From the NCBI GenBank assembly GCA_028714455.1, contig JAQTMG010000001.1:568-64567 (forward strand): a DNA stretch of 64,000 bases. Direction: 5' to 3'. A program made the position numbers and the translations under genes. This stretch comes from Patescibacteria group bacterium. Its GTDB lineage: Bacteria > Patescibacteriota > Patescibacteriia > CAIXNZ01. Position 1 is the stretch's first letter; the number at the start of each line of letters is the position of its first letter. Below are positions 7,265 through 63,825 of the stretch, in pieces. The notes below the pieces were generated by a model that saw only the letters and a list, made by a program, of their open reading frames with translations, was not told where the DNA came from and did not search any database.

Positions 7265-7339
7265 GAAAAATCATTTGTCACAGCCAAAAAATTATCATAT
7301 AATTAAATAAGGGATTTCGCCCTCTTTTATTTTTACTAT

Positions 7340-7395
7340 GAGCCATGAGCTCGAAGCACGGAGCTCTAAGCCCTAAGCCCAGAGCTCGAGGCCTT
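7340..7395. repeat. tandem heptamer array, 8 units (GAGCCAT GAGCTCG AAGCACG GAGCTCT AAGCCCT AAGCCCA GAGCTCG AGGCCTT)
   Basis: Strict 7-nt periodicity directly upstream of the smc start codon; member of dispersed RAGCYCN family. Confidence 0.65.
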
Positions 7396-7400
7396 CCAAT

Positions 7401-10085
7401 ATGTTTTTAAAAAAATTAGAAATTCAGGGTTTCAAATCTTTTGCCAATAAGATTGTTTTGGAATTTCCAGAAAAAGCCAAAAACACCAGGGGTATCACGG
7501 CTGTGGTCGGTCCAAATGGCTCGGGCAAGTCAAATACGGCCGATGCCATCCGCTGGGCTTTGGGCGAACAGAGCATCAAGATGCTGCGCGGCAAAAAAAG
7601 CGAGGATGTCATCTTTACTGGTTCTGACAAGAAAGCGCGCATGGGTTTTGCCGAGGTTTCTTTATTTTTGGATAATCACGATAAATCGGCTGACATTGAT
7701 TATGAAGAATTAATTATTACGCGCCGCGTCTACAGAAACGGCGACAGCGGATATCTTATCAATAACGCCAAGGCGCGTCTGGCTGACATTCAGTTGCTTT
7801 TAGCCAAAGCCAATTTTGGCCAGCGCAGTTATTCCATCATCGGCCAAGGCATGGCTGATTCTGTTTTGTCTGCTTCACTCCAAGAGAGAAAAGAACTTTT
7901 TGATGAGGCAGTCGGTGTTCGCCAGCTGCAGATTAAACGCGAACAGGCGCTCAATAAATTTAAAGCAACCCGAGACAATCTGGCGCAGACGGCAGTTACT
8001 CTGTCAGAAATAGAACCGCGAATAAGATCGCTTACCAGACAGGTAAAAAAACTGGAGAAGCGCGAAGAGTTTGAAAAAGAGCTAAAAGTCATTCAGCTTG
8101 ATTACTTCGCCCAGATCTGGCAGCGGCTGGAAAAAAACCAAAAAGACATAGAAATTAAAAAAAATGAGCTGGATAAAACCGCGTCTTCTTTAAGTGAGAA
8201 AATTCAGATCATCGAAAGCAAAATTAATGAATCATCGGCAGAGAGTTCGCGCCAGGTTCTTTTTGAAAAAATCCAGAACGAATATAATAATTTGATTTTG
8301 CAAAAAAATTCTCTTTTACGCGACCAGACGATTTTGAAAGCCAAGTTGGATGTGGAATTTGAGAAGCAGGGCCAGGGCAATGTGGTCTGGCTCAAAAACA
8401 GAGTCGAGGAAATCCAAAATCAGATTACCAATCACAAGCAGCAACTTTCGGAGATTGAAGACCTGATCAAAAAAGAACAAACCAATTTAAAAAATAAAGA
8501 AAACAATTTTGAATCAATCAACAAGCGCTTGGAAAATGTTAGAACAGAATTAAACCAAATCAAGGGTTCTGACAGTCAGCCTTTTGAGGGAGAAAAAGAG
8601 CTGGAAGCGATTTTTGAGCTGCAACAAGATCTGGTCAACAAACTTCTGAAGGTTGAAAATATTGAAGAACTGAAAGAGCTAAAAAATCAGGCGCGAGAAG
8701 TTTCGCAAAAACTTTCTGTCTACCTGGAAAAATTAAAAAGTGTAAAAAAACAAGGTGCTGATAATCTTTTTAATCTGCAAAACCAGCTGGAAGCCTTGAG
8801 CAAGGAAAAAAATGACTTGAGCTTGGAAATTTCCCAGTTCAAATTAAACCTGAATATAAAAAATGAAAAAATCACCTCGCTCAATCAGGAAATCACCAAG
8901 CTAAATTCGGAAATTGAAAAAATCAATCAGGAAATTTCCTTGAGCCAGGTTAAAAATGACAAAAAAGAATTTACCAGCCAGGTTGAAAAACAAATTAAAG
9001 AAGCCGAGACAAAAATTTCTGATCTAGACAAAAAAATCAGCGAACAGGCAGCCAAAATTTCTGACTTTAACAAAGATGAACAGGGTAAAAAAGAAAAATT
9101 AATTGAATTGCAGAAGGAATTTCAGGAAAAACTTAATCAGCTTAGCCAGCTTAACCAAAAAATTAGTCAGTTTGATATTGAGCTGGCCAAATATTCAACT
9201 CGCAAGGAGGATATTGAAAGCGAAATCAGGCAGGAAAAACTGGAGTTAGCCACAATTTCAAAACATCGAGCCGAAAAAGAGCTGGATGAGAATGCCGCCA
9301 GCGAACAGATTCAATATCTCAAGAGGCAAATGGAAATAATCGGCGGCATTGATGAAGAGACTCAAAAAGAATACACGGAAATCAAAGAGCGCTATGACTT
9401 TTTAAAAACGCAGTCCGAAGATCTGGAAAAAGCCATTAGTTCGGCTGAAAAAATCATTGAAGAACTCGATCGCACAATCAAGGAACAGTTTGACAAAGCC
9501 TTTAAAGAAATCAACAAGGAATTCCAAAAATATTTCCGAGTACTTTTCAACGGCGGTCAAGCCGAATTGATTAAAGTTAGCGTGGATGAAATAAAAAAAG
9601 AAGAGAAAGAAGAGAAAGAGGGGGAAGAAGGCAAAGAAGGAGCAGAGGAAGAGTCGGGCGTTTTGGCCCAGGCCGAAAAATTTGTGGAAAAATTAAAGCA
9701 AAAAGAAAAAGAGAGTTACGCGGGTATTGAAATTAAAGCCGTGCCGCCTGGCAAAAAAGTAAAGTCAATAAATATGCTTTCTGGCGGCGAGCGAGCCCTC
9801 ACTTCAATCGCCTTAATTTCGGCTATTATCGCCAATAATCCTTCGCCCTTTGTCGTGCTTGATGAAGTTGACGCGGCTCTGGACGAAGCCAATTCGGAAA
9901 GGTTTAGTTATATTATTGAAGAGCTGGCCCAAAAAACTCAATTCATTGTCATTACTCATAACCGTGTGACCATGCACAAAGCCGATGTACTTTACGGCGT
10001 GACTATGGGCGACGACGGCGTTTCTAAATTACTTTCAATCAAACTGGCCGACGCCGAGGATATGGTTGGCTCGGTCAGAGGTTAA
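7401..10085 (+). CDS. smc: SMC-like chromosome segregation ATPase (894 aa), apparently hinge-less
   Basis: N-terminal Walker A VVGPNGSGKSN, long coiled coils, C-terminal signature LSGGERALTSIAL, Walker B VVLDEVDAALD, D-loop; no recognisable glycine-rich hinge in the middle. Confidence 0.85.
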   Translation: MFLKKLEIQGFKSFANKIVLEFPEKAKNTRGITAVVGPNGSGKSNTADAIRWALGEQSIKMLRGKKSEDVIFTGSDKKARMGFAEVSLFLDNHDKSADIDYEELIITRRVYRNGDSGYLINNAKARLADIQLLLAKANFGQRSYSIIGQGMADSVLSASLQERKELFDEAVGVRQLQIKREQALNKFKATRDNLAQTAVTLSEIEPRIRSLTRQVKKLEKREEFEKELKVIQLDYFAQIWQRLEKNQKDIEIKKNELDKTASSLSEKIQIIESKINESSAESSRQVLFEKIQNEYNNLILQKNSLLRDQTILKAKLDVEFEKQGQGNVVWLKNRVEEIQNQITNHKQQLSEIEDLIKKEQTNLKNKENNFESINKRLENVRTELNQIKGSDSQPFEGEKELEAIFELQQDLVNKLLKVENIEELKELKNQAREVSQKLSVYLEKLKSVKKQGADNLFNLQNQLEALSKEKNDLSLEISQFKLNLNIKNEKITSLNQEITKLNSEIEKINQEISLSQVKNDKKEFTSQVEKQIKEAETKISDLDKKISEQAAKISDFNKDEQGKKEKLIELQKEFQEKLNQLSQLNQKISQFDIELAKYSTRKEDIESEIRQEKLELATISKHRAEKELDENAASEQIQYLKRQMEIIGGIDEETQKEYTEIKERYDFLKTQSEDLEKAISSAEKIIEELDRTIKEQFDKAFKEINKEFQKYFRVLFNGGQAELIKVSVDEIKKEEKEEKEGEEGKEGAEEESGVLAQAEKFVEKLKQKEKESYAGIEIKAVPPGKKVKSINMLSGGERALTSIALISAIIANNPSPFVVLDEVDAALDEANSERFSYIIEELAQKTQFIVITHNRVTMHKADVLYGVTMGDDGVSKLLSIKLADAEDMVGSVRG

Positions 10086-14392: not shown

Positions 14393-14404
14393 AATTGGAT
14401 AAAA

Positions 14405-14464
14405 GTTGAGGGTTTAGAGTTGAGAGCTCGGCTAAAATTTAACTCCCAACTCTCGACTCTCAAC
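14405..14464. repeat. heptamer-family repeat / inverted repeat (GAGGGTT TAGAGTT GAGAGCT ... CTCCCAA CTCTCGA CTCTCAA)
   Basis: 7-nt periodicity on both arms; arms are reverse complements (agagttgagag / ctctcaactct). Confidence 0.5.
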
Positions 14465-15974
14465 GATTAAACCTGTATTGCAGCGCCTCGGCGACATTTT
14501 GAATTCTTATTGCTTCGCTGCCCTCTAAATCGGCAATTGTCCTGGCCAGTTTTAAAATCCTGTGATAGGCTCTCGCCGAAAGATGAAATTGATTAACGGC
14601 ATTTTTGAGAAGTTCCGAGCACTGATTGTCTACAACACAAAATTGTTTAATCTCCTGCGGCCGCATTTCGCTGTTATACATTATTTTAAAATCTTTAAAT
14701 CTTTCTTTTTGTTTTTCTCTGGCCGCCTCAATCCTTTTTCTAATTTGCTCCGACTCCTCGGCGACCTTTTCCGTGGTCAATTTTTCAAAACTCAAACGCG
14801 GCACCTCAACGTGCAAATCAATACGATCCAAAATCGGACCAGAAACTTTTTTTTGATATTTAATTATCTGATAAGGCGTACAGGTGCAGTGCCTTTCCGA
14901 ATCGCTGGCGTAACCGCAGGGGCAGGGATTTTGGGCGGCGATCAAAATAAAACGCGCCGGATAACCTAGAGTTCCGGATGCTCTGGAAATTACTACTGAA
15001 CCGTCTTCCATGGGCTGGCGCAAATTTTCCAAAACCAGGCGCGAAAATTCGGAAAACTCGTCAAGAAACAAAACTCCCCGATGAGCCAAGCTGATTTCTC
15101 CCGGCCTCGGTATCCTGCCGCCGCCAACCAACGAAACTGCCGAAGAAGAATGATGCGGAGAACGAAAAGGACGCTTTTTTATGAGCGACTGATTGTGCGG
15201 CAAAAGTCCGGCCACACTGTAAATCTTGGTCACCTCTAAAATTTCCTCCAAAGTCATTTTGGGCATAATCGAAGAGGCCGCCTTAGCGAGTAGTGTCTTG
15301 CCAGAACCTGGCGGGCCGCTCATCAAGACGTTGTGTCCGCCAGCCATGGCGATTTCCAGCGCCCGCTTAACATGCTCTTGGCCCGCGATATAAGCCATGT
15401 CATATTCAATCTCATCCTCATTAAAATCAATCGGATTCTCTCTTTTATAAGAGCTAATCAATTCTTTGCCCAATAAATGGTTCATCACTTCCATGAGATT
15501 TCTGGCCGGCAAAACATTGATTCCTTCAATTAAAGCCGCCTCTTCAGCATTGATCCATGGCAAAAAAACATTTTTAAACTTATTTTCTTTGGCAAAAATA
15601 ACCGCCGGCAAAATTCCATTGGTATGCCTCAAATTCCCATCAAGTGAAAGTTCTCCAATAAATAAACAATCGGCAAGGTTTAGATTTGATTCAAAAGAAT
15701 TAAGCAGGATGCCAACCGCCATGGCCAGATCAAAGGCCACGCCTTCTTTTTTTATGTCAGCGGGTGCTAAATTAACCACAATTTTTTTTAAATACGGATA
15801 ATCATAGCCGCAATTTTTTATGGCCAGACGCGTTCTTTCTCTCGCCTCTTGAACTGCCGTATCACCCAGACCAACAATAAAAAAATCCGGCTTGCCATTA
15901 GAGACATCCGTCTCTACCTCAATCAATTTGGGATTCAGGCCGATGACCGCGCACGAATTTAATTTAGTTAACAT
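14460..15974 (-). CDS. comM: YifB/ComM family Mg-chelatase-like AAA+ ATPase
   Basis: 504 aa; Walker A GPPGSGKT, C-terminal Mg-chelatase ChlI domain. Confidence 0.9.
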   Translation of the reverse strand: MLTKLNSCAVIGLNPKLIEVETDVSNGKPDFFIVGLGDTAVQEARERTRLAIKNCGYDYPYLKKIVVNLAPADIKKEGVAFDLAMAVGILLNSFESNLNLADCLFIGELSLDGNLRHTNGILPAVIFAKENKFKNVFLPWINAEEAALIEGINVLPARNLMEVMNHLLGKELISSYKRENPIDFNEDEIEYDMAYIAGQEHVKRALEIAMAGGHNVLMSGPPGSGKTLLAKAASSIMPKMTLEEILEVTKIYSVAGLLPHNQSLIKKRPFRSPHHSSSAVSLVGGGRIPRPGEISLAHRGVLFLDEFSEFSRLVLENLRQPMEDGSVVISRASGTLGYPARFILIAAQNPCPCGYASDSERHCTCTPYQIIKYQKKVSGPILDRIDLHVEVPRLSFEKLTTEKVAEESEQIRKRIEAAREKQKERFKDFKIMYNSEMRPQEIKQFCVVDNQCSELLKNAVNQFHLSARAYHRILKLARTIADLEGSEAIRIQNVAEALQYRFNR

Positions 15975-16035: not shown

Positions 16036-17118
16036 TTAACCGATCTTTTGTGCGACCAAAATGATTATATCGTGTTTATGAGGTTTCCCGTGATAATCTT
16101 GCTTAATATAATTTTTGTATTCCAATATTCTCCACCCTTTATAAAAATTCTTTAATTCCTCGGGCTCGAAAAAATGTAACTGGCGGTTTTTCTTAAAAGC
16201 ATAGTCCTTGGTAGTAAAAACAGAAATTAAATTTATTCCATTTATTGCAGTGTGCGATTGAATCTTCAAAATCAATTTTGATAAATCTTCTCTCTTAATA
16301 AGATGCAAAACGGCCGTGCTTATAATAACATCGTAATTTTCATTAAACTCAAAATTGTTTGCGTCTACGGTAAATGTTTTTATTTGTAGATTTCTTTCGT
16401 GGGCGGAATTTTGTAGTCTGACGATTGCTTCTTCTGAAATATCGATGCCCGTTACCTCAAATCCTTCCTCGGCTAAAAATATAGCATTTCTCCCTTCCCC
16501 ACAACCAACATCCAGCACCCTTCCTTTTTTTATATAACCCGGAATCTTCACAACGTATTCATTGGGTACATTTCCCCACAAACATTTATTAAGCCTGTAG
16601 GCAGAGTTAATTTTGTTTTGATCTAAAAAAATTGATTCTCGATTTGTTTTAAATCCTTCGACAAAAAATATTATTACTCCAACAACAATCATGGCATCGG
16701 CCAGATTAAAAACAGGCCAGATAAATACATTGATATAGTCAATCACAAACCCAAAAATCAAACGGTCAATAAAATTACTCAAAGCACCCAAAATAATTAA
16801 GGAGACAGAAAATACTTGCCAAAGATTGCCCAAAATTAAATCGCGCCACCAAAGGTAACCCAAGACAATCAGGATTAAAAAAATAAAAACCATAATTACT
16901 GATTGGGGCAGCGGCAAACCGAAAGCTAAATTTAAATTAGTAAAAAAACCAATCTGCAGCAAACCATTAAAAAAATAAAATCCCGACTGCGGGATTTTAT
17001 TTAATATCAAATAATATTTTATAAATGATTCGAGGGCAAAAAATATTGTCGGAATTAAGAGGATTAAAATTATCTTTTTTGCCCCTTTCATTATTGGCTG
17101 CTTAATTTTTCTTTGCAT
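16036..17118 (-). CDS. lspA: fusion: lipoprotein signal peptidase II (N-term) + class I SAM-dependent methyltransferase (TehB-like, C-term)
   Basis: N-terminal ~160 aa polytopic with LspA signature FIDRLIFGFVIDYINVFIWPVFNLADAMIVVG; C-terminal VLDVGCGEGRNAIFLAEEGFEVTGIDISEEAI methyltransferase motif I. Confidence 0.75.
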   Translation of the reverse strand: MQRKIKQPIMKGAKKIILILLIPTIFFALESFIKYYLILNKIPQSGFYFFNGLLQIGFFTNLNLAFGLPLPQSVIMVFIFLILIVLGYLWWRDLILGNLWQVFSVSLIILGALSNFIDRLIFGFVIDYINVFIWPVFNLADAMIVVGVIIFFVEGFKTNRESIFLDQNKINSAYRLNKCLWGNVPNEYVVKIPGYIKKGRVLDVGCGEGRNAIFLAEEGFEVTGIDISEEAIVRLQNSAHERNLQIKTFTVDANNFEFNENYDVIISTAVLHLIKREDLSKLILKIQSHTAINGINLISVFTTKDYAFKKNRQLHFFEPEELKNFYKGWRILEYKNYIKQDYHGKPHKHDIIILVAQKIG

Positions 17119-17459
17119 TCAACGCAAGAACTGGAAGCGGGTCGCGCCAGTAAGCGTTCTTCGGGAATTTCATTGCCGCAATAATTGCACTTGCCGTATT
17201 TTCCCTTCTCGATTTTTTCCAGCGCCTTATTAATATCGCGCAAAGTTGTTTCCAGGGAAAATTCGATTGATAAATTATCAGTGTATTCTGCGATCTCGCC
17301 AGCATTTTCATCTTCTTTATCGCCATAGTCAGGAAATTCCGAACGATAATTATCTTTAATGTGTTCGTCTTTTTTAGCAAAACCAGCCAATTCGTTTTCG
17401 ATTTGGCTTTTTCGTTCCAATAAATCCTTCTTTATTTTTTCTAAAATTTCTTTCTTCAT
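17091..17459 (-). CDS. DksA/TraR family C4-type zinc finger protein
   Basis: 122 aa; C-terminal CNYCGNEIPEERLLARPASSSCVEC. Confidence 0.75.
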   Translation of the reverse strand: MKKEILEKIKKDLLERKSQIENELAGFAKKDEHIKDNYRSEFPDYGDKEDENAGEIAEYTDNLSIEFSLETTLRDINKALEKIEKGKYGKCNYCGNEIPEERLLARPASSSCVECKEKLSSQ

Positions 17460-25162: not shown

Positions 25163-25199
25163 TGAGCTTAGAGCTCTGAGCTCAGGGCTCATAGCCCAT
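25163..25199. repeat. tandem heptamer array (GAGCTTA GAGCTCT GAGCTCA GGGCTCA TAGCCCA)
   Basis: 7-nt period, lies in the 5' leader of the NYN gene (minus strand). Confidence 0.6.
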
Positions 25200-25207
25200 T
25201 ACCAAAC

Positions 25208-25232
25208 TAAAACCCCGGCGGGCGGGGTTTTA
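25208..25232 (-). terminator. rpsO terminator
   Basis: aaaaccccgcccgccggggtttt on minus strand. Confidence 0.6.
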
Positions 25233-25235
25233 GTG

Positions 25236-25999: not shown

Positions 26000-26028
26000 T
26001 TGTCAAAATTGCTTAAGTGTCGTAAAAT
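26000..26028 (+). promoter_or_regulatory. promoter TTGTCA-N17-TAAAAT upstream of xerC/D
   Basis: Hexamer spacing 17. Confidence 0.4.
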
Positions 26029-26062: not shown

Positions 26063-26150
26063 AATGCCCATAGGCCTAAATGTTTCTCTCGGCCTATTAG
26101 CCTATAGTTCTTCTAGTCGTATAGCTCTTATAGCTCCTATATAACAAAGA
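26063..26150. repeat. degenerate AGAGCT / TAGCTC repeat block in xer 5' leader
   Basis: aagagctacaagagctaaatgcccataggcct...tatagctcttatagctcctat; related to heptamer family. Confidence 0.4.
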
Positions 26151-28296: not shown

Positions 28297-28532
28297 TGTC
28301 AAATCCTCCTTTGTCGCGCTTAGCGACTCCAGTGGCTTGCCCCTTGCTTTGACTTTCAAGGCCTAAGGCTTGCCAAGTATGCTTTCATACTATCATACTT
28401 TTATAATTTTGTCAATGATAACGATTCAAAAATTAGCTAATATTAAATAAATAAATTTTTTAGCTATCTTTAGACAATAAATCCAGGCAAAGTTGACTAA
28501 GACCAAAATTTTTGCTAAACTATATTATAATA

Positions 28533-28567
28533 TAGCTCTGGGCTCGGAGCTTTGAGCTTAGAGCTTT
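28533..28567. repeat. tandem heptamer array (TAGCTCT GGGCTCG GAGCTTT GAGCTTA GAGCTTT)
   Basis: 7-nt period. Confidence 0.6.
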
Positions 28568-28650
28568 TTAAATAAAACATTCTAAAATTGTTCCGAAGGG
28601 ATGCCTTTGGCATAAATTGTAAATTGAGAATTGTAAATTGTTTCAGACTC

Positions 28651-28729
28651 CGTAGTTTCCGCCAGAGGCGGACCACGAATCGAGCTTTGCTCTGGTTCGT
28701 GGCAATGGATATCAAAAAATTAACACCTG
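28651..28729 (+). repeat. tRNA-Arg-associated leader element, copy A (identical to copy B at 60670-60752)
   Basis: CCGTAGTT + TCCGCCAGAGGCGGA hairpin + CCACGAA-N16-TTCGTGG hairpin + CAATGGATA (tRNA D-loop sequence) + TCAAAAAATTAACACCT, directly abutting tRNA-Arg 5' end. Confidence 0.7.
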
Positions 28730-28801: not shown

Positions 28802-28906
28802 CAGTGGTTCTCGGCCAAAGGCTGATCCGCCTCTGGCGGAGATTCCTGGCGGGGTCATAAGGAGATTCGAGTTTCGTGCAAGAGCAAGAGAAATAAAAAT
28901 AAAAAT

Positions 28907-29251
28907 ATGTTTGATTTTGAAAAACTTGAAGTTTATAAAAAAGCCAAAAATATAAATGTTGAAATTTCGGAATTTTTAAAATCTGCAAATGTAGATATTT
29001 TCCTGAATAATCAGTTGAAAAGAGCTTCGTTAAGCATATTATTGAATATTGCGGAAGGTAGCGGTAGATCAACAAAAAGAGATAAAAGAAATTTTTTTGT
29101 CATTGCTCGCGGTTCGGTCTTTGAGTGCACTTCAATTTTTGATCTATTATTCACAGAGAAAGAAATTGAAATTGAAAAATATAATTATTTTTACAATCAG
29201 CTTGAAGAGATTTCAAAAATGCTATACGGTCTAATCAAAACTCATGAATAA
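28907..29251 (+). CDS. four-helix-bundle protein (23S rRNA intervening-sequence / Avd-like family)
   Basis: 114 aa; KLEVYKKA...LKRASLSILLNIAEGSGRSTKRDKRNFFVIARGSVFECTSIFDLL pattern of TIGR02436-type proteins; flanked by inverted GCAAGAG-rich repeats (28883-28895 / 29256-29280). Confidence 0.75.
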   Translation: MFDFEKLEVYKKAKNINVEISEFLKSANVDIFLNNQLKRASLSILLNIAEGSGRSTKRDKRNFFVIARGSVFECTSIFDLLFTEKEIEIEKYNYFYNQLEEISKMLYGLIKTHE

Positions 29252-38227: not shown

Positions 38228-38668
38228 TCAATGCCTAACTACTAAAAATTCTCTGCCGTTTCTTGTCGTTTTTATTTTTAGCCAGATAACTTTTTTAAAT
38301 TTTTTTAAATAATTTTTAATCTTATCCGCCCATTCAATCACCACGACGCTATTTGGGTTATTTAAATATTCTTCAAGCCCTAAATAAAATAATTCCTGCG
38401 GCTCATCAAGCCGATAACAATCTACGTGAATTAAGGCTCTGAGCCCCGAGCTCTGAGCCCCGAGCTCGTATACCTTCATCAAAACAAAAGTCGGGCTGGT
38501 GATGTGTTTTTTAATTCCAAACGCATGACCAAGAGCTTGCGCAAAAGTCGTCTTGCCCGCGCCCAAATCGCCTTCCAGCGCCAAAATCTCCCCGCCCTTC
38601 AACTTTTCGGCAATCTTGGCGGCGATCTTGGTAGTATCTTGTTCTGATTTTGAAATGATTGTTTTCAT
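38228..38668 (-). CDS. tsaE: tRNA t6A biosynthesis ATPase TsaE
   Basis: P-loop GDLGAGKTTFAQ, SPTFVLMKVYE...HVDCYRL; contains in-frame heptamer array (ELGAQSSGLRAL). Confidence 0.85.
   Translation of the reverse strand: MKTIISKSEQDTTKIAAKIAEKLKGGEILALEGDLGAGKTTFAQALGHAFGIKKHITSPTFVLMKVYELGAQSSGLRALIHVDCYRLDEPQELFYLGLEEYLNNPNSVVVIEWADKIKNYLKKFKKVIWLKIKTTRNGREFLVVRH
38435..38467. repeat. heptamer array inside tsaE coding sequence (GGCTCTG AGCCCCG AGCTCTG AGCCCCG AGCTCGT)
   Basis: Same RAGCYCN family; encodes a short insertion relative to canonical TsaE. Confidence 0.55.
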
Positions 38669-38696
38669 AATAGTTCATGAGAAAGAGGGGATGATG

Positions 38697-38803
38697 GGCG
38701 AAAAAAGCCTTTGTCTCGTACTGTCATCCTGAGCATAGTCGAAGGATCCATAACATCATGGATTCCTCTCTGCGCTCGGAATGACAAAGGCTTTTTTCGC
38801 CCT
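38697..38803. repeat. 107-bp intercistronic hairpin element with perfect 20-bp inverted arms GGGCGAAAAAAGCCTTTGTC
   Basis: Arms 38697-38716 and 38784-38803 are exact reverse complements; 67-nt spacer is itself near-palindromic; lies between tsaD and tsaE (same strand). Confidence 0.6.
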
Positions 38804-38956
38804 ACCAAAATTCTCAATTCTATATTCTATGTCTATATTCTAAGATTCCAAATAACAAACAAATAGTAATTTCCAAGCACTAAATTATAAACGCGTTTAT
38901 TATTTATAATTTATTATTTTGAATTTGTTTGGGTTTTGGTGCTTGCGATTTGGTCA

Positions 38957-43628: not shown

Positions 43629-43995
43629 GAAAAGTCCTCCTTTACTTTGTTGATGTTAATATATTGAAATTAATTCGATAAGTCAAGCTTGACTTTTGTT
43701 ATATTTTAGCTTATTATAATAGTAATCCCGAAAGGGATTTTGTTTTTTGAGAATAGGTATTAGGTAATAGTTATTAGGAAATGGAATAAATTTCTTATCG
43801 CCAATACCTATTGCCAAATACCCAATATCCAGCACACCGCCTTCGTCCCGAACTATATCTCGCTTTGCTCAATAAGTTCGGGATAAATCTAATGGTTAGC
43901 CATAGTCCGCCGAAGCACGAAGTGCGAAGGCGGAGACACCGCGCTTTTCCGCCAGAGGCGGACCCGCCTACGGCGGGCAATGCGGTTAAATAAAT

Positions 43996-55878: not shown

Positions 55879-56163
55879 TTATTTCTTTTCAACCACCTGA
55901 CTGCCCCTCTTGTGATACTTAATCAATCGTGAAAGCTTGCGCGCGGCCGTGTTTTTCTTAATCACGCCTTTTTGGGCTGCCTTATCAATGCTTTTTTGCG
56001 CTTGTCTAATTAAGGTTTCGACATCTTTAGCGGCTTTTTTGCTATCAATATCTTTTCTAATTTTCTTTAATAGAGTTTTTAAATCCTCGCGGATTTTGGT
56101 ATTGCGCTCTAGATGTCTTTTAGTCTTTCTTAGGGCTTCTTTGGCTTGCTGTTTAATTGGCAT
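55879..56163 (-). CDS. rpsT: 30S ribosomal protein S20
   Basis: MPIKQQAKEALRKTKRHLERNTKIRE...; terminator caccccgctacgcggggtt at 55851-55878. Confidence 0.9.
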   Translation of the reverse strand: MPIKQQAKEALRKTKRHLERNTKIREDLKTLLKKIRKDIDSKKAAKDVETLIRQAQKSIDKAAQKGVIKKNTAARKLSRLIKYHKRGSQVVEKK

Positions 56164-56208
56164 ACTATTTAATTATGAAATATGAATTATGAATTAGATT
56201 TGATTTAA

Positions 56209-56236
56209 AAAGCTCTAAGCTCATGGCTCAAAGCTA
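56209..56236. repeat. tandem heptamer array (AAAGCTC TAAGCTC ATGGCTC AAAGCTA) in rpsT leader
   Basis: 7-nt period. Confidence 0.55.
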
Positions 56237-56278
56237 AATATATAAAAATGATAGCAAATAATAATTCCTTGGTCAAGC

Positions 56279-60669: not shown

Positions 60670-60752
60670 GCCCTCGTAGTTTCCGCCAGAGGCGGACCAC
60701 GAATCGAGCTTTGCTCTGGTTCGTGGCAATGGATATCAAAAAATTAACACCT
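60670..60752 (+). repeat. tRNA-Arg-associated leader element, copy B (100% identical to copy A core)
   Basis: GCCCTCGTAGTT (tRNA nt 1-12) + 45-nt double hairpin + CAATGGATA (D-loop) + TCAAAAAATTAACACCT, then the complete tRNA. Confidence 0.7.
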
Positions 60753-62422: not shown

Positions 62423-63604
62423 TTATTTTTTCATAAATACGCAAATTTCCCTGTAAATATGCTGTTTTTCGCGTGAGTAAATAAGTTGTTCTTTGTTGAC
62501 TTTTTCAAAACCCAGATCAAATAATTCATCAAAAATATTTAATTCCGCTAAGTTGCTGCCTAATTTAAAAATTGGAAACACAATTACAATCTTGCCTGAT
62601 GGTTTTAAAATTTTAGCAAATTGTTTAAAAGCATCTAAATACAATTGTTTCAAGCTATTTATAATTTTATTTATTTCGTTTTGATTTTCTCTACCGTTTA
62701 AAGCTGGCCCGAGATATGGTTCCGTAATAATGGCATCGATAACAGGGGATTCAAATTCGGCTGATAGATTTTTCACATCAACTTTACTTATTTTTATATT
62801 ATCAATATCCAAACCAAATCTTTCTTTTAACCAATTTATATTTGTGATTGAATTTTCAACTGCTTTATCGTTCGAATCAAAACCAAATAATTTTTTATAA
62901 CCGAGAAATAATGCTTCTTGTAAAATAGTTCCGGAACCGCAAAACGGATCGACAATAATTGCTTCGCTTTTTAATTCAGCCAAGTTTATCATCATGCGCG
63001 CCAGTTTTGGCGGCAACATGCCCGAGACATCGTCGCGGCCTGGCCGCGTAAAATCTCTGGCGCCAAATTCTTCAAATTCTTGCACGGCCATCGTCTGACC
63101 AAAAATAATCTCATCTTTTTTTATAAAAAAACAAATTTCCGCGCCATTTTGTAAAAGCTTATTTTTTTTGACAATCACTGATGAAAGCTCTTTTTCTTTG
63201 GAGACAACATATCTGGAGCTGATATCTTTTTCCTTTAGCTTTCTCTTGATTTCCATAGCAATCGGCAATAATTGCCTCTGGTATGTGCCCAAATGAACTT
63301 CAGGCGATAGGGAATATAAGCTAAAGCCATAATAGGCTTTGCCTTCTTCGACCTTAAATAAATCTATGAATTTATCCTCAAATCTGGCCAAATTTGATAT
63401 TTTACCTAAAATTAGCCCAATTTTGATAGTTCCCCCCAGTCGCTTATTAACCGTTTGTACATCAAGTTCCTTATCTGTCTCAATTATATATATATTATCT
63501 CTAAATTCTATGTTCTTTATTCTATATTCTAAAAACTCCGAGACGGCGTTAATCTCGGCTTTGGATAAAATCGGATTTTTACCTAATATGAAAAAGTATT
63601 GCAT
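62423..63604 (-). CDS. THUMP-domain RNA (guanine-N2) methyltransferase (Trm14/RlmL-like)
   Basis: Motif I DPFCGSGTILQEA, motif IV ITEPYLG; start at ATG 63604 preceded by TTGAAA-N17-TATGAT promoter; ORF-track TTG extension rejected. Confidence 0.75.
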   Translation of the reverse strand: MQYFFILGKNPILSKAEINAVSEFLEYRIKNIEFRDNIYIIETDKELDVQTVNKRLGGTIKIGLILGKISNLARFEDKFIDLFKVEEGKAYYGFSLYSLSPEVHLGTYQRQLLPIAMEIKRKLKEKDISSRYVVSKEKELSSVIVKKNKLLQNGAEICFFIKKDEIIFGQTMAVQEFEEFGARDFTRPGRDDVSGMLPPKLARMMINLAELKSEAIIVDPFCGSGTILQEALFLGYKKLFGFDSNDKAVENSITNINWLKERFGLDIDNIKISKVDVKNLSAEFESPVIDAIITEPYLGPALNGRENQNEINKIINSLKQLYLDAFKQFAKILKPSGKIVIVFPIFKLGSNLAELNIFDELFDLGFEKVNKEQLIYSREKQHIYREICVFMKK

Positions 63605-63825
63605 ATATATATTATCTAAATCATATCGTAAAAATCTGTACTTTTCAAGGATTGCTTTAGGACGATTTTTTGCTATAATTAAGGCAAACGGAACTATATC
63701 ACGCAACTCATTTCTAATACTAAATCATGTGTCAAATCAGCAAAGTATGTGCTAGAAATGAGTTATATGGAATGCTGAAACTACGGCTACACTTTTAAAA
63801 AACATTTTAAATTTATTTAAATTTT

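Follow-up and report, generated by a model that had tools for sequence, protein, structure and literature searches.

Palindromic GAGCTCN heptanucleotide arrays in a Falkowbacteria-like patescibacterium and their relation to a clade-wide class of tandem heptamer repeats

A contiguous stretch of 64,000 nucleotides (nt), hereafter the window (positions 568 to 64,567 of contig JAQTMG010000001.1, Patescibacteria group bacterium assembly GCA_028714455.1), was analysed for a family of tandem heptamers, RAGCYCN, that a reading of the sequence alone had placed at seven sites. Truly 7-nt-periodic RAGCYCN arrays with the core RGCYY were found at five of the seven, and these GAGCTCN arrays are a real and statistically solid repeat family. 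The remaining two sites did not hold: 14405-14464 is built of another unit, and 26063-26150 is not heptameric. We lean towards reading the GAGCTCN arrays as slippage-driven heptanucleotide repeats of the type of the short tandemly repeated repetitive (STRR) sequences or long simple sequence repeats (SSRs), and as one unit family within a lineage-wide population of such arrays. The host is a Falkowbacteria-like patescibacterium, its XerC-like protein being 93% and 90% identical to those of two Candidatus Falkowbacteria metagenome-assembled genomes (MAGs). Related loci are designated by L-numbers (L001 etc.) and TsaE orthologue proteins by P-numbers.

Chaining of RGCYY cores at 7-nt steps gave chains of at least three cores at five loci per strand, compared with 0.02 in mononucleotide shuffles. 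The same five loci were found on each strand, in agreement with the proposal that the arrays look alike on both strands owing to a palindromic core. Pairs of RGCYC were counted 13, 10 and 8 times at spacings of 7, 14 and 21, and 0-2 times at any other spacing up to 28. Taken together, 27 units give the consensus G/A, A, G, C, T/C, C, N; the array at 7340-7395 reads, in order, GAGCCAT GAGCTCG AAGCACG GAGCTCT AAGCCCT AAGCCCA GAGCTCG AGGCCTT. Matches within arrays, as scored by Tandem Repeats Finder (TRF), were 72-91%, except for a perfect 14-mer in tsaE. A strict run-length scan (mismatch penalty 3) found a single period-7 array because the units are degenerate; pooled intergenic autocorrelation rose only slightly at lags 7 and 14. 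Both were replaced by a column-conservation scan (five units, at least 80% column conservation, low-complexity sequence excluded), which returned 9 window arrays at period 7 versus 4, 3, 1 and 0 at periods 5, 6, 8 and 9, and about none in shuffles. The original array list was thereby seen to be incomplete, since heptamer arrays with other units lie at 28613, 38817, 38894, 43744/43797, 56162 and 63495. Re-examination of the window by TRF and shuffling showed the periodicity to be real and not a low-complexity artefact. Logan contigs of the same organism were 100% identical to the window, and the rpsT, NYN and xer sites were identical base for base in the independent assemblies SRR22315508 and SRR22315509, so that these sites are not artefacts of one assembly. 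An interpretation as restriction sites (GAGCTC, SacI; GRGCYC, BanII) was dropped, neither avoidance nor excess being seen outside the arrays; GAGCTC occurs 18 times in the window, where a composition estimate predicts ~10, and about half of the 18 lie within arrays.

The comparison covered 80 related loci and the window, 1.24 Mb in all. The relatives are MAG contigs, in which assembly can collapse repeats, and the class statistics rest on crude longest-open-reading-frame (ORF) gene calls. Period-7 arrays numbered 151, versus 45, 50, 22 and 11 arrays at periods 5, 6, 8 and 9, and 107 of the 151 fell in the ~13% of the DNA outside the crude ORF calls. Unit diversity across the clade is extreme, with dozens of families. 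Within the 64 kb, same-unit families are dispersed over five loci (GAGCTCN) or two (TATTCTA). Units of the GAGCTY type were limited to the closest relatives (L001, L003, L004, L008, L010 and L088). The description of a dispersed, 7-nt-periodic family present in relatives is upheld.

Array density per kb was 0.81 in co-directional, 0.48 in divergent and 0.39 in convergent spacers. In co-directional spacers, 35 arrays were closer to the downstream start and 35 closer to the upstream stop, and the clade set gave no A/T or G/C strand skew of arrays relative to transcription. The claim that most copies sit 0-50 nt upstream of start codons is good for four window sites, not for 28533 (160 nt before a tRNA gene), 38434 (coding) and 14405 (after stop codons), and as a general rule it is contradicted by the clade ratio of 35:35. 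This lack of positional and strand bias makes a gene-linked signal unlikely as the general cause and points to a symmetric process at the DNA level. Two other properties were considered for the class and rejected. For arrays as self-phased promoters, with three units approximating the -35/-10 spacing, scores of at least 9/12 were reached by 0.14 of sense versus 0.11 of permuted units. For hairpin formation as a common property, z was below -2 in 13% of arrays versus 13% of control spacers when folded alone, and in 37% versus 31% with flanks; nor was there any enrichment of self-complementary units (figures below).

Sequence comparison shows that the 7-nt periodicity is kept at orthologous sites while the unit changes. 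In the rpsO-NYN spacer the units are GAGCTCN x5 in the window, TATAGCT-like x8 in L001, TNATGGC/CATTTGC x9 in L008 and TTAACAA x5 in L005. The same is seen within coding sequence in tsaE, where the array at 38434-38468 encodes ELGAQSSGLRA, a loop of TsaE. An insertion was considered for this site and rejected, the loop of the orthologues having identical length; the L082 loop, for example, is encoded by CCGAAAT CTGAAAT CCGAAAT CCGTAAT, and further units are given in table 1. Pooled tsaE-array DNA was identical at 0.73 of positions at lag 7 versus 0.17-0.36 at other lags. In 92 TsaE orthologues with a 12-residue loop, lag-7-residue identity was 43.7% versus 1-10% at the other lags (4-9), and within-protein matches were, for example, 43/92 versus 11.7 +/- 3.0 in column shuffles. 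A 7-nt period runs through all three reading frames and is not producible by protein selection, which argues for a DNA-level repeat homogenised in each lineage. In the window the array is a perfect 14-mer x2.3 (TRF), to judge by its sequence the mark of a recent block duplication, and a rare TsaE allele longer by 7 residues (P0024) corresponds to three units.

In the mechanism that we infer, arrays would arise and be repeatedly homogenised through slipped-strand mispairing in a 7-nt register. Steps in coding sequence would have to equal three units (21 nt), and the persistence of an array at an orthologous site while its unit drifts would represent concerted evolution. Slippage with homogenisation would account for units being replaced while sites stay fixed, for the block repeat of a 14-mer in tsaE and for the 21-nt coding length steps. 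The arrays of the lineage are found between genes, in a small number of coding loops that tolerate them and in spacers of rRNA and tRNA genes; they would not be mobile elements. Any effect of an array would depend on its unit and its place, so that function would be local and secondary; the palindromic family would supply hairpins, three of them with terminator or attenuator anatomy and others serving as structured leader spacers.

Since the GAGCTC core is self-complementary, the GAGCTCN family folds into RNA hairpins. Stable G+C-containing stem-loops (10-14 bp) followed by a T-tract were predicted at 28534-28569 (+), 56235-56207 (-) and 14396-14470 (-); the T-tract is absent at 7340, 25163 and 38434, where terminator anatomy is accordingly lacking. 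The earlier suggestion of an attenuator is thus plausible at the first three sites only, where a terminator or attenuator role may be envisaged on structural grounds, and not as a general role. The first two belong to cassettes, one leading tRNA-Arg (28493-28569, +) and the other rpsT (56276-56207, -), which have the same order: a conserved sigma-70-like promoter, the array hairpin ~5-12 nt further on, T5, an AT-rich heptamer array and the gene. In the tRNA-Arg leader a 14-bp hairpin at 28534-28565 precedes the T-tract (-20.4 kcal/mol, z -4.8) and is picked out by a consensus terminator scan. The -35 and extended -10 elements of its promoter are invariant in four genomes; the array has 5 units in the window, 5 in L001, 5 in L004, 3 in L003 and at most 1 in L002, and the hairpin with T5-6 is retained in L001 and L004, shorter in L003 and missing in L002. 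In the rpsT leader a 10-bp hairpin is followed by TTTTTAAAT on the minus strand (-12.6 kcal/mol, z -3.2). The two modules align over ~85 nt, and the exact 20-mer GAGCTTAGAGCTTTTTAAAT is common to the rpsT element (56207-56236) and 28554-28573. By their predicted folds, both cassettes have the anatomy of a promoter-proximal intrinsic terminator or attenuator, or else of a 5'-terminal stem-loop.

For the leader arrays of smc and NYN the predicted folds are of moderate stability (z about -2 to -3) and no T-tract follows; these arrays probably act as structured spacers. The smc-leader array (7340-7395) gave a fold of -23.1 kcal/mol (z -2.6), which partly pairs a GAGG Shine-Dalgarno-like motif. Comparison with relatives showed this leader to be a hypervariable slot behind a conserved promoter and a small hairpin with T-run. 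In L088 the slot holds an inverted TGAGCTT/AAGCTCA array pair (-33.6 kcal/mol); L081, L083 and L087 carry MITE-like (miniature inverted-repeat transposable element) inverted-repeat elements, L082, L093 and L089 other hairpins, and L085 and L086 AT-rich repeats. The small hairpin and long T-run are conserved across L081-L089 and L093 (SMC identity 65-72%), a promoter-proximal, terminator-like structure before an essential gene.

The pair at 14400-14464 is inverted and 7-nt-periodic with the unit GAGTTGA/TCAACTC, and has a single GAGCTC near the loop. The gene ending at 14460-14462 was assigned to the Mg-chelatase/ComM-like ATPases in a Pfam scan of window ORFs. The hairpin (14396-14470, -) was predicted at -28.5 kcal/mol (z -5.7) and looks like the terminator of this comM-like gene. 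Ordinary terminator hairpins occupy the position in relatives, where heptamer arrays downstream of comM were looked for and none was found. The xer leader (26063-26150) has a TRF period of 9.

Table 1. Repeat arrays, promoter-like sites and tsaE units; positions are those of the window, and cells are empty where no value applies.
Feature	Position	Strand	Setting or loci
Sigma-70-like promoter TTGTCA-N17-TATAAT	7276-7304	+	upstream of smc; present in L081-L089, L093
Small hairpin and T-run AGGGATTTCGCCCT CTTTTATTTTT	7312-7335	+	directly after smc promoter; kept in relatives
GAGCTCN array, 8 units	7340-7395	strand-symmetric	smc leader; ends 5 nt before smc ATG at 7401
GAGTTGA/TCAACTC inverted array pair	14400-14464	-	hairpin overlaps comM-like stop codon (14460-14462), then TTTTA
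GAGCTCN array, 5 units	25163-25199	strand-symmetric	flanked by rpsO terminator (25206-25234) and NYN gene start (25149, minus)
Promoter-like site	26000-26028		xerC-like leader
Period-9 repeat TATAGCTCT x4.4	26103-26141		xerC-like leader; AGCTC core in common with GAGCTCN
Promoter TTGACT-N17-(TGC)TAAACT	28493-28521	+	directly upstream of 28533 array
GAGCTYN array, 5 units	28533-28567 (element to 28569)	+	160 nt upstream of tRNA-Arg(TCT)
Heptamer array, TAAATTG x4	28613-28641		between GAGCTY hairpin and tRNA-Arg; kept in L001, L002
GAGCYCN array, 5 units, in frame	38434-38468	-	within tsaE coding sequence
Heptamer array, TATTCTA (reverse complement TAGAATA)	38817-38842		tsaD-tsaE spacer; same unit family as 63495-63539
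Inverted array pair TAGGTAT x5 / 11-nt gap / ATACCTA x5	43744-43835		leader of GIY-YIG gene
AT-rich heptamer array AATTATG (reverse complement TAATTCA)	56162-56205		abuts rpsT start
GAGCTYN array, 4 units	56209-56236 (element from 56207)	-	between rmuC stop (56279) and rpsT start (56163)
Promoter-like TTGACC-N17-(TGC)TATCAT	56248-56276	-	directly upstream of 56236 array; aligns with tRNA-Arg leader promoter
Heptamer array, TATTCTA	63495-63539		N-terminal part of long ORF 62423..63706, start codon uncertain
tsaE unit GAGCTCN			window, L108
tsaE unit AATAGAG			L107, L111
tsaE unit CCGAAAT			L082
tsaE unit AAAATTT			L117
tsaE unit AAAATCN			L118

Several observations weigh against slippage as the full account of the arrays. 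Two read sets gave the same arrays, and three species agree in having 5 units at the tRNA-Arg site, so that turnover must be slow or length under selection; the tsaE array is likewise nearly constant in length, with 5 units in most orthologues. Unit mismatches averaged 2.51 between and 2.33 within window arrays (permutation p = 0.11). Such likeness between arrays, about equal to that within them, is not predicted by purely local slippage and may point to dispersal, to gene conversion or to some constraint that the units have in common. An exact 20-mer and an alignable promoter are common to the cassettes of tRNA-Arg and rpsT, and it is odd for a predicted terminator to follow directly on a conserved promoter that serves a tRNA or a ribosomal protein. 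Self-complementary units were not enriched in the clade set (26 observed versus 22.2 +/- 3.0 expected), which argues against hairpin-assisted slippage as a general driver. Neighbouring arrays (within 150 nt) were inverse complements in 15/28 cases and same-sense copies in 0, where random pairs give ~6% (5.9%) either way. This excess calls for an additional process, for example one that forms palindromes, or one in which older hairpins expand in both arms. Inverted pairs were found flanking a G+C-rich terminator (L018), filling a 96-nt spacer (L057) and, with a T-run, before a tRNA (L010). No within-species copy-number polymorphism was seen in the two read sets or in three samples of the P0003 species, and a metagenome scan with SMC for strain comparison yielded nothing closer than 72% identity.

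Two further inverted arrangements were noted in L070. At 15447-15548 an inverted pair fills an entire 102-nt tRNA-tRNA spacer, and the 16S rRNA gene (16289-17323, -), of Falkowbacteria, contains an insertion of ~170 nt made of inverted heptamer arrays, the arrays lying at 16670-16821. Because positions persist despite unit replacement (tsaE, the 16S insertion, tRNA spacers) and inverted pairs are matched, it may be asked whether the 7-nt periodicity is itself maintained by an active, lineage-specific process or by a reader working in 7-nt steps, a reading that we regard as unlikely but worth naming. Candidates would be a repair or template-switch pathway that homogenises repeats, or a nucleic-acid-binding protein that forms filaments or rings and to which the unit sequence does not matter. 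As a third candidate, the arrays might serve as preferred landing pads for tiny mobile hairpin elements (cf. L111 tsaE and the smc-leader slot).

Other explanations were weighed against slippage within a lineage-wide class. The omega repressor binds WATCACW heptads and MetJ binds tandem 8-bp metboxes, and the arrays could by analogy be operators or centromere-like sites, where a small protein that binds DNA cooperatively would place one dimer on each 7-bp unit and repress adjacent promoters. The tandem units with their palindromic core and 7-bp step would suit such a protein, as would the presence of both direct and inverted arrangements, as in the omega heptads, the position of three window arrays within ~5-40 nt of sigma-70-like promoters, and the conservation of the tRNA-Arg array and promoter in four genomes; the likeness of units between arrays, equal to that within arrays, is also in keeping with it. 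A single factor is nevertheless hard to reconcile with at least five other unit families in the same genome and dozens in the clade, or with a unit that changes at orthologous sites, conservation being confined to the tRNA-Arg array. Two genomes (L004/L117 and L006/L118) have one unit in tsaE and another in the tRNA leader, so that no one factor would be matched throughout the genome; arrays also lie in convergent spacers, in coding sequence, in the 16S insertion and between tRNAs. The subset of ORFs in these 64 kb of the genome that was scanned against Pfam yielded no ribbon-helix-helix protein or comparable small DNA-binding protein, and an operator function is considered improbable. To much the same degree we doubt an RNA-level module of 5' leaders, in which the arrays would be a platform for an oligomeric or single-stranded-RNA-binding protein (HutP-like, reading NAG-N4, TRAP-like, S1 or cold-shock) that tunes translation initiation. 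Four window arrays do lie 5-46 nt upstream of starts, several of the genes are without a clear Shine-Dalgarno motif, and NAG-N4 can be read, by eye only, on the sense strand of many arrays. MacGregor in 2015 proposed that TAACTGA repeats act in this way in Beggiatoaceae (PMC4679880), and a Nostoc preprint describes heptamer repeats that affect recF/recO expression (doi 10.1101/2022.06.06.494920). The class, however, has neither orientation bias nor a preference for starts over stops; convergent spacers, coding sequence and the 16S insertion are occupied, the 28533 array precedes a tRNA and not a coding sequence, the units differ at orthologous sites, and L002 has no array at the tRNA-Arg site. 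The start-linked binding module or translational enhancer of the sequence-only reading is thus not supported as a general cause. No HutP or TRAP domain was found among the subset of window ORFs scanned against Pfam.

A mobile or copied cassette, similar to repetitive extragenic palindromic sequences (REP/REPIN) or MITEs, would have the promoter, GAGCTY hairpin and TTTTTAAAT spread by transposition or gene conversion. This would explain why the tRNA-Arg and rpsT modules align and have a 20-mer in common, true MITE-like elements do occupy the same slots in relatives, with one in the window at 38696-38802, a Y1 transposase is encoded beside tsaD in L118, and a 33-nt hairpin element has been inserted twice in the L111 tsaE array. 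We nonetheless rate it as improbable, and the REP/MITE-like label proposed earlier is given up: the arrays have neither inverted repeats at their ends nor target-site duplications, sites differ in unit number, most arrays stand at orthologous positions in relatives, flanks are common to two copies only, and the tsaE coding array is as long as in the orthologues and hence is no insertion. Highly improbable, in our estimate, is an antisense network in which the cassettes produce RNAs of ~40-45 nt, and the mRNAs of smc, NYN and tsaE are paired in trans, through their GAGCUC arrays, with the self-complementary GAGCUY units of these RNAs. Two cassettes with a promoter, a hairpin from about +1 to +12 and a U-tract do have the anatomy of small RNA genes, and the same-unit arrays in mRNAs lack a U-tract. 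The idea is purely structural, however, a hairpin of 10-14 bp would keep the RNA paired with itself, L002 has no hairpin, and in relatives GAGCTY is retained in the tRNA-leader array but replaced by other units in tsaE and NYN. Least credible is a role as phase-variable contingency loci, in which copy-number change switches or grades expression as with the Haemophilus hmw1A 7-bp repeats. The tandem 7-bp units do lie in leaders, hmw1A provides a documented precedent (PMC8262952, PMC12721329), and unit number at the tRNA-Arg site varies among species (5, 5, 5, 3 and at most 1). The units are degenerate, however (72-91% TRF matches), the adjacent genes are housekeeping genes (smc, rpsT, tRNA, tsaE) and not surface or virulence genes, and the arrays were identical in the two read sets and in three samples of the P0003 species; the copy-number comparison between samples suggested earlier thus gave no length differences, within this small sampling.

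Further elements were noted beside the arrays. In TsaE P0038 (L111 78-602, L112 1259-1783) the 33-nt hairpin element CCTGCCTACCGAAGCTCGAAGAGCGAATGTAGG occurs twice, in frame, inside the tsaE array, and P0036 and P0046 have a different insert of +11 residues in this place, so that very small elements may use heptamer arrays as targets for insertion. The Y1 transposase gene of L118 (8174-8788, PF01797) lies directly upstream of tsaD; this family includes the REP-associated tyrosine transposases (RAYTs) and IS200. The MITE/REP-like element at 38696-38802 has perfect 20-nt inverted arms, GGGCGAAAAAAGCCTTTGTC / GACAAAGGCTTTTTTCGCCC, and the core GTCATCCTGAGC...GAAGGATC; its relatives lie in the smc-leader slot of L081, L083 and L087 and after the GAGCTY array in L004. 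The 18-mer TTCCGCCAGAGGCGGACC occurs four times in the window (28657-28674, +; 28824-28841, -; 43947-43964, +; 60681-60698, +; chance expectation 0.04), two copies flanking tRNA-Arg(TCT) in inverted orientation, one before tRNA-Arg(CCT) and one before the GIY-YIG gene. The 28657 copy is preceded by GACTCCGTAGTT, a duplicate of a tRNA 5' end, and it is here that the L001 tRNA begins. These copies may be a small tRNA-associated element or insertion. ORF 28907-29251 belongs to the 23S rRNA intervening-sequence protein family (PF05635) and sits between tRNA-Arg and tRNA-His, outside any rRNA gene. The orthologous xerC-like leader of L008 has a 7-nt-periodic, hairpin-forming array in place of the period-9 repeat. 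The TAGGTAT/ATACCTA pair (43744-43835) was predicted to fold at -24.1 kcal/mol (z -3.4), and between it and the GIY-YIG start lies a G+C-rich, apparently highly structured leader of ~150 nt (43840-43995) that gave no Rfam match. Of the curated Rfam covariance models run against the window, only those of 9 tRNAs reached gathering scores, and no array was matched. The cumulative GC skew of the window drops steadily throughout (to -2.13), although many genes at 26-53 kb are on the plus strand.

Intergenic heptamer families became known from cyanobacteria in 1990 and afterwards from Xanthomonas, Burkholderia and Beggiatoaceae, and have no accepted origin, function or reason for the number seven. 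The new host is a streamlined bacterium of the candidate phyla radiation (CPR) with very little non-coding DNA, in which one would least expect neutral clutter. Of the by-products, the most interesting is the tsaE array, evolving in concert across a large clade, together with the arrays in rRNA and tRNA spacers; in more than 90 orthologues the tsaE array is a natural experiment on rates of turnover and length change, and on slippage versus selection. For annotation of CPR genomes it matters that heptamer arrays make up many hairpins of spacers, some terminators and at least one insertion in an rRNA gene, and that such arrays can be mistaken for regulatory motifs.

Comparison with known systems places the arrays as follows. 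Like intrinsic terminators, three window sites combine 10-14-bp G+C-containing hairpins with T-tracts; unlike them, the stems are built of heptamers, and two lie directly downstream of a promoter and not after a gene. With the sites of omega (pSM19035) and MetJ they have in common short tandem units (7 or 8 bp) by promoters, direct and inverted, but those systems use one conserved unit per protein, whereas here the unit varies between sites and between orthologous sites. The SSR of Haemophilus influenzae hmw1A/hmw2A is also a heptamer tract in the promoter/5'-untranslated region (5'-UTR), where it interacts with 5'-UTR RNA structure (PMC8262952, PMC12721329); those tracts are perfect, long, hypervariable and adhesin-controlling, whereas the present arrays are short, degenerate, invariant in a few samples and beside housekeeping genes. 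In marine Beggiatoaceae, TAACTGA forms direct repeats of 2-6 units just upstream of starts, including those of ribosomal-protein genes, with few in ORFs (PMC4679880). The position of arrays and the occurrence of a few within ORFs are similar, and a regulatory role has been proposed for the TAACTGA repeats; there, however, one dominant unit has a fixed forward orientation over the ribosome-binding site, whereas here many units occur without orientation or start bias. The STRR heptanucleotide sequences of cyanobacteria, reportedly described by Mazel in 1990, resemble the present arrays in that several tandem heptamer families per genome are scattered in non-coding DNA; the unit sequences and the phylum differ, and STRR arrays are often longer. 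We know of no link of STRR sequences to cassettes of promoter and T-tract. STRR sequences are also mentioned for Calothrix (PMC4692102). A report of heptamers in this phylum, Patescibacteria, was not found in a literature search of incomplete coverage. In Xanthomonas (GGGAATC) and Nostoc (GGGGAYT) the repeats are dispersed, mostly of ~4 units, with many inverted pairs and no strand preference; orthologous sites vary in length and sequence, and polymerase slippage was proposed (Rehm et al. 2015, PMC4692102). Slippage favouring 7-nt steps is the standing hypothesis (Mrazek 2007, as summarised in PMC4679880). The present arrays are likewise degenerate tandem heptamers, mostly of 4-8 units, intergenic, with stem-loop-capable inverted pairs and sites kept between species; they differ in the palindromic GAGCTC core, the lack of G-quadruplex potential, a CPR host with a genome of the ~1-Mb class, the many unrelated unit families per genome and the one array in a conserved coding position. 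The repeats are therefore not of a new type, as had been thought, but fall in the known class of intergenic heptanucleotide SSRs (PMC4692102, PMC4679880; cyanobacterial STRR): what is new is the unit and the phylum, and they are neither a new kind of element nor a start-linked module.

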